Below are positions 6,074-11,697 of a stretch of DNA of 13,037 bases, piece by piece. The DNA is from a virus (taxonomy: Duplodnaviria > Heunggongvirae > Uroviricota > Caudoviricetes), in IMG/VR virus record IMGVR_UViG_2617270938_000002; one strand, 5' to 3'. The stretch's first letter is position 1. Every line of letters starts with the position of its first letter. The notes beneath the pieces were generated by a model. The model was given only the letters and a program-made list of their open reading frames with translations. It did not search any database and was not told the origin of the DNA. The position numbers and the translations under genes were made by a program.

Positions 6074-7083
6074 TACCGATATGCTCCACTTAACCGACCA
6101 CCATCACGGGCCTGCTGTTGCATAAAGTCCGCTGCCGCTTTTTTCCCAAGGTCATAAACCACCTTCAGGGCAGCCGGACCTATCTGCCCGTTCGTGCCAT
6201 CGTTATTGATCTCGATGTTGTACTGCGGGGCAAACATCGCCATACCTGAACCACCAATATCCGCCACAACCCCCAGCTTACCGTCAGCACCACGACGCAG
6301 TGGCAGAATGGCTTCAGGTCCAGCTTCCCCCATCACACCCGCGCCTTTTGCAAAAGCAAAAAACGTCGGACGGTTAACCACCGTGCCACTGTAACGACTC
6401 AAATCAGCAGACTGATAAATCCCCCCATTGGCATTCAGGGAAAGGCTGCTGAGATCAAATCCCAGTACACTGCCAATCCCTTTTATCGATTTCATCATGG
6501 TTGCCTGCGCCAGGATTTTCGCCATATCTGACAGCACCGAAGAGGTGAAGGATTTGAAGTTGAGTTTGCCGGTAGTGACAAAAGTTGCCAGGCCATTTCC
6601 CATGTTGCTGAAGGCTGACGAGAACCCCTGTTCTGCTGTTCCTGCCGTATTGTCTGCATCCACGGTAAAATCCTGAAATGCACGCAGGACTCCGTTTTTC
6701 CAGTTACCCTGCACAACTTCAAGCTGTTGCCAGTAACGGCGATTCTCATTCAGTTGTCGGTTCAGGCTCTCCGTCAGCGCCTGCTCGGCCTTTCTGTAGT
6801 CATCCGTGTTATATGTCCCTTTCTGCTCACTATCCCGCCTCAACTGCTCCAGCTGTTGCTGGTATTTCTGGCGAAGACTCAGTTGTACCTGATATCGCTG
6901 CCGCTGCTGATCACCCATACCGCCAATAACCCCGCCAAGCATCATGCCTTTCGGTGACATCAGAGTGTCTATCCATCCGGCACGGTTAGCCAGCGTTATC
7001 CCGGATCCCCTCACAGACGGATTGCGCCCGGAGCGTGTCGCATTGTGGTCATGTTCTCGCTGTGCCAGTCGGAATGAGGCCAC
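6073..7083 (-). pseudogene. H: Tail tape-measure protein H, C-terminal fragment only (N-terminal part of the gene absent)
   Basis: The C-terminal part of the 336-aa ORF (INNDGTNGQIGPAALKVVYDLGKKAAADFMQQQARDGG) resembles the lambda H C-terminus and is followed directly by M. Lambda H is 853 aa, but only about 1 kb of gene is present here and the ORF's N-terminal residues do not look like tape-measure sequence. The upstream limit of the fragment is uncertain. Confidence 0.75.
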
Positions 7084-7368
7084 TGGCAGCCTTTTTCACG
7101 AAGTAACCAGCTTTCAAGACATTCCACGCCACCAGCACGACGGATCACTGCCTCATCGCGGAACACGGCCCGAACGGCAGGATCATCCGCCAGCGGTTGT
7201 GATGCCGCCGGAACGGCACCACTGGCGAAAGATGAATAACGCTCCGGCTCAGGCTCCAGCAGGACACGCCCCTGCATAAACAGGGGCATCAGCTCTGAAC
7301 CTGGCCTGAACAATACGATCCCCATACGCGGGGCAATTTCAGGGGTCAGTAGTGCTCTCACGGTCACC

Positions 7369-8166
7369 TCAATGAACGGTATCGAGCAGCTTTAACAGCT
7401 CAGTGAATCGGGATTCGAAGAAATGCGGCTGCGTCTCGCGCGGATTTGCAGGACTGGTGATGTTCTTGCCGAACATGCAGCCTTTCGCCGTCAGCGACCA
7501 GAATTTTTTGATGTTGTTAATCGCTGTACGGCTGTATCGTTCGCGCTGTTCGACGATCCCCAGCTTCGCCATCTGGTGATATGCCTGATTAGCCGTCAGG
7601 CGGATACCATACTGCTTCAGCAGTGCACTCAGTGACAGCGTGGGGCGGCTTGAGCCATCAGGCGCGTCAGCAGGAGCATCAATGGCATAACGCGGTGCCA
7701 GATTCGGTAAGCCAACAGCCTCCTGGAGTTTCTGACAGGCCCCAAGCACAGATGAGTTAGACAGATTTAACTCCCGGCGCATAAAGTCCAGCAGAATCAC
7801 ACCAGCCTTCATCTTGTCAGCAGCCTGTCCGGATAATTTTTCCGGTGCGCTGGTTACCATGTCGAAAGTACGGATCACCTTAAGATGGAATGACGGGCTT
7901 ATCCACATTGCATAGGCATACACCAGTTCTTTGCAGACATACGTCCCCTGGTTATTTCCGCCACGAATAACGTTAACTGGCTCTATATTGACCGAGTTGC
8001 AAATCTGCAACTCGCTTATTAAACGTTCAGTTTGCTCATTGCGGAGCCAGAATGCAGGCTTATGCTTATCCAGAGAACCGGCAGCCCTGTGAAGATCGTT
8101 CAGGCTGTAACGACCATAAGCATCACGACGAACTTCAATACCATCAATGACCATCAGATTATTCAT
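7369..8166 (-). CDS. KilA-N domain protein, 265 aa (possible antirepressor-type protein)
   Basis: N-terminal region MNNLMVIDGIEVRRDAYGRYSLNDLHRAAG...KPAFWLRNEQTERLI...GTYVCKELVYAYAMWISPSFHLKVI has the pattern I associate with KilA-N/APSES-type DNA-binding domains; strong Shine-Dalgarno AAGAGGAGAAA upstream of the ATG at 8166. Family assignment is from memory only. Confidence 0.6.
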   Translation of the reverse strand: MNNLMVIDGIEVRRDAYGRYSLNDLHRAAGSLDKHKPAFWLRNEQTERLISELQICNSVNIEPVNVIRGGNNQGTYVCKELVYAYAMWISPSFHLKVIRTFDMVTSAPEKLSGQAADKMKAGVILLDFMRRELNLSNSSVLGACQKLQEAVGLPNLAPRYAIDAPADAPDGSSRPTLSLSALLKQYGIRLTANQAYHQMAKLGIVEQRERYSRTAINNIKKFWSLTAKGCMFGKNITSPANPRETQPHFFESRFTELLKLLDTVH

Positions 8167-8216
8167 ACTTCGTTTCTCCTCTTAATCGGGCGGCTCCCCC
8201 CGCCGTTTTCTCGTAC

Positions 8217-8360
8217 TTACTGATAGTGATCTCGACCTTCCCTTCCGGGATATCCCAGCATGGTTGCCACCTCCTGATTGGTTGGCGGAAAGCCACGCTC
8301 TTTCTGATAAGAAATCAGCATATCCAGCACCTGCTGCTGGCATTGAGTTAACGTCGTCAT
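8217..8360 (-). CDS. 47-aa small ORF resembling the LexA N-terminal DNA-binding domain
   Basis: Translated by hand (not in the ORF track, which omits ORFs below about 60 aa): MTTLTQCQQQVLDMLISYQKERGFPPTNQEVATMLGYPGREGRDHYQ. Compare LexA N-terminus ...[34 protein letters not shown]. ATG at 8360 overlaps the stop of the upstream gene (TAATG). Could be a gene fragment. Confidence 0.4.
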   Translation of the reverse strand: MTTLTQCQQQVLDMLISYQKERGFPPTNQEVATMLGYPGREGRDHYQ

Positions 8361-8848
8361 TACGCCCCCACGTAATTCCCTGACAGATACCACTCATCAC
8401 CCGATACAGCGCGCTTGCTGCTTTTCCGTAAACACTGCTCACGACGCGCCAGAAAATTGTTTCGTTCTGGCTGGGAGTGGCTTTCACGGAATGCCTCCAT
8501 CCACACCGTTGCAGCTCGACGGTATAAGCCCCTGGACTCCAGTTCTTCCGCCTGGCGGGTCAGGCACAAAATCACCCGCGGGTCGTTAGTGCCGACATAG
8601 AAATTGCGCACAGGTCTGGTTTCACGAACTGGTTGTGGTTCCGGATCCTGCGCTCTCTCAGTCAGGCGCGGGAAATGTCTGTGTGTATCTCCTTCACAAC
8701 GGTGAGCCACACGCCCACTCTGACGTAACTTGCTTGCTGACTGCAGAACGCGCTGCCGTGAGTAACCTGCAAAAGCATCCGCAATGTCTCCGGAAGTACA
8801 GCCCGGATGGGCTTCAATGAATTTCTGAACGTCATTCAAAAGACTCAT
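8360..8848 (-). CDS. Putative PerC-family regulator, about 162 aa
   Basis: C-terminal segment LESRGLYRRAATVWMEAF resembles the conserved PerC/Pch motif (L-E-x-x-G-L-W-R-R-A-A-x-x-W) as I remember it. ATG at 8848 has an AGGGGG Shine-Dalgarno 5-6 nt upstream, inside the 3' end of the O-like gene; the ORF track starts it at a GTG at 8854. Confidence 0.5.
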   Translation of the reverse strand: MSLLNDVQKFIEAHPGCTSGDIADAFAGYSRQRVLQSASKLRQSGRVAHRCEGDTHRHFPRLTERAQDPEPQPVRETRPVRNFYVGTNDPRVILCLTRQAEELESRGLYRRAATVWMEAFRESHSQPERNNFLARREQCLRKSSKRAVSGDEWYLSGNYVGA

Positions 8849-8850
8849 GA

Positions 8851-9792
8851 TCACCCCCTGAATCCTGCCGGGATCTGGCTGTAGTCCACGTTGTCGTAAC
8901 TGGCTTTGAAGTACGGGTCTTCACGTTTTTCTGTGTGCGTGCTGACGGACGGCGATAAGCGCAGGGAAAGCTCATCCCATTTTTCCCGCAACTTCGACGG
9001 GCTGAGCACGTTACGGCACCAGAACGGATCGCGGCTGACGCGGCTGTACATCTCGCAGATTTGTTTGTGAGTACGACCATCCTGCACACACATCAGGCGA
9101 ATTTCGTTTGCCCATGCTGTCCAGTTCGGTTCTTTGGGACGAACCACCTCGCCGTCACATTCGGCGGCCTGCTCGTACAGGGCAATGATTTTTTTCCAGA
9201 GCCACTGTGCGCAGGTCAAATCATCCTGCGTTCCCCACTGGCGCTTTTTAGGGCTGAATACAACCGCATCAGGATGGCGAGTTAAAAAATCCTGTTCAGC
9301 CGTCTGCGTGTCCGGTTGCGAAGCGTCCGGACGAGAAGGTTTTTTATCTGACGGATCATGTTTTGATTTTACTGACGGATCCCCGCCAGATTCTGACGGG
9401 TGAAAACCCGCTTTTTTGCCAGATTTCGACGCATCAAATTTTGACGTGTCAGATTTTGATGCGTCAGATTTTGACGGGTCAGAATCTGACAGTTGAGAAA
9501 ATGCCGCTGCCTGAAGCTTCGCAACGTTAAGCTGATAAACATTCGACGCATTGCGGTTACCCTGGCGACGCGCCTTACGCGTTAACCAGCCTTCTGCTTC
9601 CAGCCGTGCGATAGCCGTTCTGACGGTACTCATCCCCGCGCCAATCTGACGGGCAATGGTTTCAATTGATGGCCAGCACACACCTTCGTCATTACTGAAA
9701 TCAGCCAGGCGGGCCATAATTGCCACGCTGGATAATTTCATGCCTGATGCAGCGCAACCATCCCATACATAGCCGGTTAATTTAGTGCTCAT
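8851..9792 (-). CDS. Phage replication initiator, lambda O-like (N-terminal DNA-binding domain, repetitive linker, conserved C-terminal domain), 313 aa
   Basis: N-terminal winged-helix-like segment (SVAIMARLADFSNDEGVCWPSIETIARQIGAGMSTVRTAIARLEAEGWL); internal low-complexity repeat SDSDPSKSDASKSDTSKFDASKSGKK encoded by tandem DNA repeats; position immediately after the cro/cII-like genes. Functional call is by architecture and position. Confidence 0.65.
   Translation of the reverse strand: MSTKLTGYVWDGCAASGMKLSSVAIMARLADFSNDEGVCWPSIETIARQIGAGMSTVRTAIARLEAEGWLTRKARRQGNRNASNVYQLNVAKLQAAAFSQLSDSDPSKSDASKSDTSKFDASKSGKKAGFHPSESGGDPSVKSKHDPSDKKPSRPDASQPDTQTAEQDFLTRHPDAVVFSPKKRQWGTQDDLTCAQWLWKKIIALYEQAAECDGEVVRPKEPNWTAWANEIRLMCVQDGRTHKQICEMYSRVSRDPFWCRNVLSPSKLREKWDELSLRLSPSVSTHTEKREDPYFKASYDNVDYSQIPAGFRG
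9364..9493. repeat. Iteron-like tandem repeats inside the O-like gene (candidate replication origin)
   Basis: Five contiguous 15-bp repeats at 9419-9493 (consensus about TCAGATTTTGACGNG, including TCAGAATCTGA, which is a perfect palindrome), plus further copies at 9387-9400 and a degenerate one at 9364-9378. Confidence 0.55.
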
Positions 9793-11022: not shown

Positions 11023-11697
11023 ATGAAAACAATCCATGACATCCGGCGGTCTAACGCCAGAAAACTGAGAGATGGTGTTGGCGGAAATTCATCCTTTGCC
11101 ACCATGATTGATCGCGAGCCAACCCAAACCAGCAGGTTTATGGGGGATGGCGCTACTAAAAATATCGGTGACAGCATGGCACGGCACATCGAAAAATGTT
11201 TCGACCTGCCTGTCGGATGGCTTGATCAAGAACACCAGACAACGAACATCACAAAAAAACCTGATGTTTCAATCACTAACAAACAAATAACGTTAGTCCC
11301 TGTCATATCATGGGTACAGGCCGGAGCATGGAAAGAAGTTGGCTATTCTGAGGTTGATTTGAGCACAGCAGAAACGTATCCCTGCCCTGTACCCTGTGGC
11401 GAAATGACTTATATCTTGCGGGTGATTGGTGATTCAATGATTGATGAGTACCGCCCTGGAGACATGATTTTTGTTGATCCCGAAGTCCCTGCCTGCCACG
11501 GTGACGACGTTATTGCATTGATGCACGATACAGGCGAAACCACCTTCAAGCGATTGATAGAAGATGGAACACAGCGTTATCTCAAAGCATTAAACCCAAA
11601 CTGGCCTGAGCCTTACATTAAGATTAACGGTAATTGCTCTATAATTGGTACAGTGATTTTCTCGGGAAAACCAAGAAGATACACAATAAAGGCCTAA
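11023..11697 (+). CDS. CI-like prophage repressor with C-terminal S24 (LexA-like) autopeptidase domain, 224 aa
   Basis: C-terminal domain has an Ala-Gly cleavage-site candidate (WVQAGAWKE), the catalytic Ser context (VIGDSMIDEY) and the Lys context (TFKRLIEDG), closely paralleling lambda CI (GNSM ... FKKL). Divergently arranged with the cro-like gene. Confidence 0.8.
   Translation: MKTIHDIRRSNARKLRDGVGGNSSFATMIDREPTQTSRFMGDGATKNIGDSMARHIEKCFDLPVGWLDQEHQTTNITKKPDVSITNKQITLVPVISWVQAGAWKEVGYSEVDLSTAETYPCPVPCGEMTYILRVIGDSMIDEYRPGDMIFVDPEVPACHGDDVIALMHDTGETTFKRLIEDGTQRYLKALNPNWPEPYIKINGNCSIIGTVIFSGKPRRYTIKA

Follow-up and report, generated by a model that had tools for sequence, protein, structure and literature searches.

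The closest described relatives of the sequence analyzed here are proteins built on the DNA-binding domain of LexA. In Escherichia coli phages they are represented by the 108-amino-acid (aa) 'LexA family transcriptional regulator' (WP_000210156.1; SfII gp44, AGQ45534.1; SfV orf42; PHROG 362), on which no functional study was found in a literature search. The nearest analogue of this protein that has been functionally studied is gp6 of phage GIL01, a truncated LexA homologue which consists of the LexA domain only, and activates a late promoter (PMC6182141). GIL01 gp6 comes from a Bacillus tectivirus, and binds its own site, not the SOS box. The present work deals with a 47-aa open reading frame (ORF), hereafter the mini-ORF, located on the minus strand of a 13,037-base-pair (bp) stretch (the window; Caudoviricetes, IMG/VR record IMGVR_UViG_2617270938_000002) which corresponds to one whole E. 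coli contig. The mini-ORF has residues 1-37, the yfdN neighbour and the stop-start overlap of the 108-aa family, but it lacks residues 38-108, and carries 10 foreign residues instead. With a probability of about 0.93, it is a truncated pseudogene, a fragment left by a microhomology-mediated deletion in a decaying lambdoid prophage. GIL01 gp6 is an analogue of the 108-aa parent, not of this stump.

E. coli LexA, the N-terminal domain of which is known in structure (PDB 1LEA, 3JSO), is about 50% identical to the parent over residues 2-70, but neither the parent nor the stump has the S24 peptidase or dimerisation domain of LexA. The process that formed the stump has close parallels as well. Microhomology deletions in E. 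coli, including those accompanying IEE-dependent excision of insertion sequences (IS), range from a few nucleotides (nt) to tens of kb and are joined at 2-6 nt, and IEE has been reported in over 33% of E. coli assemblies (PMC9943667).

Structure of the mini-ORF

The mini-ORF was found where the initial annotation had placed it. It runs from the ATG at 8360-8358 to the TAA stop at 8219-8217, and encodes MTTLTQCQQQVLDMLISYQKERGFPPTNQEVATMLGYPGREGRDHYQ. The ATG and the TAA stop of the preceding 164-aa PerC-family gene have the A in common (TAATG), and the kilA-N start lies 50 nt downstream of the ORF; the overlap had been recognized from the outset, and the gap estimated at about 50 bp. The proposed likeness to the DNA-binding region at LexA's N terminus was confirmed for residues 1-37 by profile searches, one of the checks that had been advised. 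Residues 1-36 match positions 1-36 of 65 in Pfam PF01726 (LexA_DNA_bind; E=1.1e-7, 31.9 bits, cut-off 23.7), a significant match to a partial domain. The match to PHROG 362 (E=4e-18) covers positions 1-38 of 106, and denotes a family fragment, not an intact member. The NCBIfam lexA model (TIGR00498 equivalog) is matched at positions 1-37 of 203 with 24.9 bits, below its curated cut-off of 110.95. Judged by these profiles, the resemblance to LexA is well above chance, and the stump is a fragment of a member of the known phage family PHROG 362.

The LexA homology stops at residue 37, just short of helix 3 (residues 40-52 of the intact 108-aa protein as modelled). Residues 1-37 are those of the 108-aa protein, and the last 10 residues, PGREGRDHYQ, derive from the +1 frame of the rusA 3' end. 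The peptide had been thought to end inside recognition helix 3: that it is truncated holds true, but the homology ends before the helix, and the tail is out-of-frame rusA. In the AlphaFold model of the stump, helices 6-22 and 28-34 are followed by coil; the confidence for these helices 1-2 is moderate (pLDDT about 80). The recognition helix, the beta-wing and the two C-terminal helices (residues 38-108 of the parent) are missing. Neither the complete winged helix-turn-helix (helices 1-3 plus beta-wing) nor the C-terminal S24 peptidase/dimerisation domain with its Ser-Lys dyad, both required of LexA proper, is found in an ORF which ends at 47 aa. The position of the family between yfdN/dam and rusA is retained, as yfdN is kept with the same overlap, and a rusA 3' remnant lies directly downstream.

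Comparison with intact relatives

The window was compared with an intact E. coli prophage (L001) and with phage SfII (L002). In both, the genes come in the order O-like, yfdN/perC, (dam), the 108-aa LexA-domain gene, rusA, kilA-N, DUF968 and Q, and stops and starts overlap. The TAATG overlap is already present in L001, and is thus inherited, not peculiar to the mini-ORF. Translation of the intact lexA-like gene gives 108 aa, that of rusA 129 aa. The features of the window at the site are:

8217-8360, minus strand: 47-aa ORF, a chimera of lexA-like codons 1-37 with 10 out-of-frame codons and a stop from the rusA 3' end
8251-8360, minus strand: what is left of the 327-nt LexA-domain-only gene, its 5' 110 nt (encoding just helices 1 and 2), 100% identical to L001 4490-4599
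8251-8252, no strand: junction of a 536-bp deletion with TA microhomology (GGGATA/TCCCGG on the minus strand), L001 3954-4489 being missing
8186-8250, minus strand: rusA 3' remnant, the last 65 nt, in which the former TGA stop is now CGA

The parental sequences are GGGATA/CCGTTC, after nt 110 of the lexA-like gene, and CGGTTA/TCCCGG, 65 nt before the rusA stop; the TA at the 8251/8252 join is common to both ends. The join links codon 37 of the 108-aa gene, but not in frame, to the final 65 nt of rusA. Identity to L001 is 100% between the repressor gene and the junction, on the side of the lexA-like gene, and 99.8% on the kilA-N side, and what the window lacks is exactly 536 bp. Collinearity with an intact relative on both flanks, loss of an internal segment and a dinucleotide common to both ends at the join are the marks of a deletion scar, and none of the data contradict a deletion.

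The 1.7 kb surrounding the site were found in 2,154 of 5,426 complete E. coli genomes. The best matches are always split into 2-3 pieces which span 2.2-2.9 kb, and they have two additional annotated genes, for a 'LexA family transcriptional regulator' and a RusA resolvase. The same two genes are found in phages SfII and SfV, in several Stx2 phages and in others. The argument that the mini-ORF is not simply a frameshifted full-length gene was sound, the cause being a deletion. A longer LexA-like gene, which it had been suggested to look for in related prophages, occurs at this position, as the 108-aa gene, in thousands of genomes, and this settles the reading of the mini-ORF as a remnant. It had been regarded as either a remnant of, or a variation on, a circuit of the Tum or Gifsy type. 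The remnant stands, as the stump of a deletion; its derivation from such a circuit, in either form, does not.

An ancestral early-right operon with the gene order of L001 and SfII, and with the LexA-N-terminal-domain-only gene intact, lost 536 bp between two TA dinucleotides. Codons 38-108 of the lexA-like gene went, along with all of rusA except the last 65 nt, whereas the start codon, the ribosome-binding context and the stop-start overlap with yfdN were kept. Since start context and overlap are intact, translation of the stump is probably still possible when the operon is on. With recognition helix, wing and C-terminal helices gone, DNA binding is not to be expected of it, and the 47-aa product is most likely inert.

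The intact parent protein

The parent gene (L001 4273-4599) is absent from the window beyond nt 110. Its 108-aa product covers the entire LexA_DNA_bind profile (1-65 of 65, E=3e-19), gives no match to PF00717 (S24 peptidase), and scores 70.5 bits against NCBIfam lexA, again below the cut-off. The alignment to E. coli LexA covers residues 2-86 of the latter, includes the hinge and reaches Ala84-Gly85, the LexA cleavage site (PMC3159453), and the Ala-Gly pair is present. The predicted structure comprises helices 6-22, 28-35 and 40-52, strands 56-59 and 65-68, and extra helices 74-87 and 93-103, and superposes on the LexA-DNA complex 3JSO at 1.3 Å over 68 residues, with 50% identity. Ser39, Asn41, Ala42 and Glu45, which we take to be the base-contacting residues of LexA, are unchanged. 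Among 97 distinct intact alleles, 49 synonymous and 37 nonsynonymous polymorphic sites were counted, and the intact gene is accordingly under constraint.

At least 1,000 contigs encode the intact 108-aa sequence, and the central part of the gene occurs in 2,204 of the 5,426 complete E. coli genomes (about 40%). Carriers include Stx phages and Shigella serotype-converting phages. Encoded between the replication genes and Q, the parent is a protein with the DNA-binding domain of LexA only, and is not itself a LexA target. It might act as an uncleavable mimic of LexA, reading SOS boxes in about 40% of E. coli, a proposal to which we give somewhat less than an even chance.

A recurrent breakpoint

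The breakpoint GGGATA/CCG, between nt 110 and 111 of the lexA-like gene, has been reused exactly in independent assemblies, including two complete genomes. A 36-aa product (MTT...ATMLG, followed by a stop; P0123), which clusters with the 47-aa protein, is found on at least 153 contigs. These contigs share one left end, ...ATGCTGGGATA, from which they continue into very different sequences, among them the middle of rusA, the tape-measure gene at its end, the interior of kilA-N, a J/lom region, tail-fibre genes, a small-terminase region, gpA, a fragment of DUF968 and a Q-like gene. Complete genome CP053736.1 has the inside of an IS2 as partner, and complete genome CP182368.1 another join at the same left breakpoint. 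The collected loci display 19 distinct continuations, which correspond to 17 different downstream partner sites, versus 151 intact copies. In a second, right-fixed class, five different upstream sequences, from cro-like, perC and O-like genes and from the immunity region, are joined to (TA)CCGTTC.... The total is at least 22 independent rearrangements at the same base (17 downstream plus five upstream partners).

Left-fixed loci: window 8251/8252; L004-L011, L059, L089, L168, L172, L185, L187-L193
Right-fixed loci: L138-L143, L178

The bias towards this position was assessed in an unbiased IMG/VR sample of 120 contigs, with the gene's first 32 nt as anchor, in which 716 nt spanning the gene and rusA were examined. 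Only three interior structural breakpoints were found, at nt 109, 110 and 496. By our own calculation, the probability that two of three uniformly distributed breakpoints fall in a 2-nt interval, the position of which had been fixed beforehand by the window, is about 2e-5. At the protein level, other breakpoints to foreign sequence within the gene are scattered, and no other position is prominent.

Where known, the native partner bases preceding the join are CGGTTA, CGGATA, CGGTTA, GAAATA, CTGATA, TGGTA, TGGTA, CCCTA, CAGATA and CCGTA. Identity to ...GGGATA amounts to 2-6 nt, is often imperfect, and is confined to that, retained, side; the TA is usually retained in both left-fixed and right-fixed classes. 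The pattern is consistent with an end that lies at a fixed position, escapes resection and is either joined through terminal microhomology or primes a template switch. A site-specific recombinase recognizing half-sites was considered and rejected: partners resemble the hot spot only in the few nt abutting the join, and likeness so limited argues for end-joining or template switching over a recombinase.

Other candidates did not fare better. Insertion of an IS at the breakpoint followed by excision finds no support, as no IS end lies next to either flank in any collected locus, and the partner in CP053736.1 is inside IS2, not at its end. In this respect the site differs from IEE-dependent deletions; IEE-type microhomology joining, which is frequent in E. 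coli (PMC9943667), could do the rejoining, but it does not explain the fixed end. In phage Stx2a_WGPS2, IS629 lies in yfdN, not in the lexA-like gene. A hairpin or cruciform is not supported by DNA folding of 61- and 101-nt windows around the breakpoint, as z-scores on both strands range from -0.6 to +0.4. Inspection by eye for Chi, the gyrase consensus, the preference of RusA for cutting 5' of CC, and type IIS or common restriction sites gave nothing that fits the position. A literature search found nothing on the hot spot.

Two further observations pertain to the site. In ten independent assemblies (L012-L016, L194-L198) contigs end at nt 109-113 of the gene, which implies either two copies diverging at the hot spot or a repeat starting there. 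In E. coli CP8-3_Sichuan (CP053736.1; L190 2327-3041), several internal deletions occur in the same operon of one prophage, where the N-terminal part of perC is fused to the C-terminal part of dam, and the lexA-like stump to the interior of the IS2 transposase gene. This case suggests that microhomology deletions may come in bursts in single prophages.

We tentatively propose, while considering the proposal rather more likely to fail than to hold, that the lexA-like gene has a base-precise fragile site at nt 110/111. Some phage or host enzyme would break DNA there in a site-specific manner, most simply by cutting the strands with a 2-nt stagger at the TA, and distant sequences would then be attached to the ends through 2-6 nt of terminal microhomology. 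The mini-ORF would then be one of many products of a previously undescribed, site-directed decay of prophages.

Alternative explanations

The deletion leaves a scar that is rare. Only one contig, JNMO01000100.1 (assembly GCA_000700385.1), is recorded as encoding exactly this 47-aa product, and it is the window itself; the GenBank entry is KDU06540.1, 'lexA DNA binding domain protein [Escherichia coli 3-105-05_S3_C3]'. Neither the GTDB species genomes nor IMG/VR nor the JGI metagenomes contain the junction 26-mer, no top match in complete E. coli genomes crosses the junction in one piece, and no 58-aa, GTG-start version of the mini-ORF is on record. It weighs against a true deletion that the junction rests on a draft assembly, the window being a whole contig of it. 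The join could be an artefact of this 2014 short-read draft, and the real genome could have the genes intact, all the more so as four unusual joins fall on one contig of 13,037 bp and the allele is seen nowhere else. The joins, however, have only 2-7 nt in common, an overlap much too short to be bridged by an assembler, two samples are on record for the contig, and the identical left breakpoint recurs in complete genomes CP053736.1 and CP182368.1 and in many independent assemblies. An artefact is therefore very improbable.

Equally hard to credit is that the stump is a functional micro-protein, for instance a dominant-negative fragment which, through helices 1-2, titrates a partner either of the LexA-like protein or of host LexA, and is retained on that account. 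The intact start context and translational coupling, the two helices predicted in the stump, and the fairly common 36-aa version are compatible with a function of this kind. But the 47-aa allele is a singleton, tails differ according to the junction (36, 37, 41 and 47 aa), and the same break also gives products devoid of any N-terminal part. What recurs is thus a position in DNA, not a peptide. Moreover, LexA dimerises through the C-terminal domain, not through helices 1-2.

The circuit that had been envisaged on the basis of the KilA-N neighbour was analyzed along with the regulatory signals of the window. LexA-controlled antirepressors reportedly include Tum of coliphage 186 and GfoA/GfhA of the Gifsy phages. 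The locus resembles these systems in its prophage context and KilA-N/Ant-like neighbour; it differs in that no LexA operator is present, the repressor is of the S24 type, and the adjacency of the two genes was made by the deletion, since rusA lies between them in intact relatives. No LexA box (CTGT-N8-ACAG) occurs in the 13-kb window. One-mismatch matches number 7 versus 4.7 expected, which is the chance level, and none is upstream of kilA-N, where it had been advised to look for a box. Promoter and terminator consensus matches for either the mini-ORF or kilA-N are weak, at background level, and kilA-N, fifth in a long early operon of co-directional genes, is not separately promoted. The repressor at 11023-11697 carries a full Peptidase_S24 domain, at variance with the non-RecA-cleavable repressor of antirepressor modules, and an antirepressor is therefore not needed for SOS induction.

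Relatives have near-consensus LexA boxes, though in parts that the window has not kept: TACTGTATATAAAAACAGTA within the cI region of SfII (L002 8135-8154) and CACTGTTTATTTTTACAGTA downstream of Q in L001 (44-63). These boxes might serve host LexA, or the 108-aa protein, as targets.

No evidence speaks for an SOS/antirepressor circuit, and the stump qualifies neither as LexA proper nor as part of a LexA-controlled antirepressor module. That the mini-ORF is a remnant or variant of such a circuit, with KilA-N as the antirepressor, is the least probable of the alternatives, for although the KilA-N protein weakly matches phrog_2127 and phrog_63, PHROG families near anti-repressors, and adjoins a LexA-related sequence, the window has no LexA box, kilA-N lies within an operon with weak promoter matches only, rusA separates the two genes in all intact relatives, and the repressor has a self-cleavage domain of the S24 type.

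Other features of the window

The genes surrounding the scar, as defined by profile searches and by comparison with relatives, are:

7011-7367, minus strand: DUF968 gene reduced to its N-terminal part; a second deletion, very large, truncates it at about 7012 and joins it to the tape-measure gene
7369-8166, minus strand: KilA-N domain gene, 265 aa (Pfam PF04383, E=2e-26), which follows rusA in intact relatives
8360-8854, minus strand: PerC-family/YfdN gene, 164 aa (Pfam PF06069, E=3.7e-10), annotated as yfdN in relatives
8851-9792, minus strand: O-like replication initiator (HTH_36; profile search and relatives), first gene of the coupled run
11023-11697, plus strand: prophage CI-type repressor with S24 peptidase domain, ymfK-like (Pfam PF00717, E=1.5e-26)

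The PerC/YfdN protein also resembles, in its C-terminal part, the ANR (AraC negative regulator) family NF033650, though at 23.5 bits the match stays below the cut-off of 32. A 15-bp unit, CAGATTTTGACGCGT, is repeated 4.3 times at 9420-9483, inside the O-like replication gene, where it encodes a protein repeat of the SDASKSD type; the repeats are probably origin iterons.

Three further microhomology deletions mark the same prophage, in J, in H (tape-measure) and between H and DUF968. The first, of about 1.0 kb, lies near 1426 in J (microhomology CGG[G/T]AAT), the second, of about 1.3 kb, near 6921 in the tape-measure gene (ATACC). The third is the very large one at about 7012 (CA), which removed Q and the lysis, head and most tail genes. 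The prophage is heavily eroded, and the mini-ORF is one of its scars.

Significance

The mini-ORF, as originally noted, is an ordinary, already annotated prophage gene in truncated form, and the SOS/antirepressor circuit suggested for it is not there. What merits a second look, rather than the mini-ORF, is the recurrent breakpoint along with the widespread parent gene. The repeated use of one base, in 22 or more independent rearrangements, is the signature that a site-specific break or nick in DNA leaves. If this is true, the site provides a defined sequence with which to seek the enzyme behind part of the erosion of E. coli prophages. The parent gene, in turn, encodes a LexA DNA-binding domain with unchanged recognition-helix residues and no cleavage domain, and could affect SOS-controlled traits, including the induction of toxin phages.

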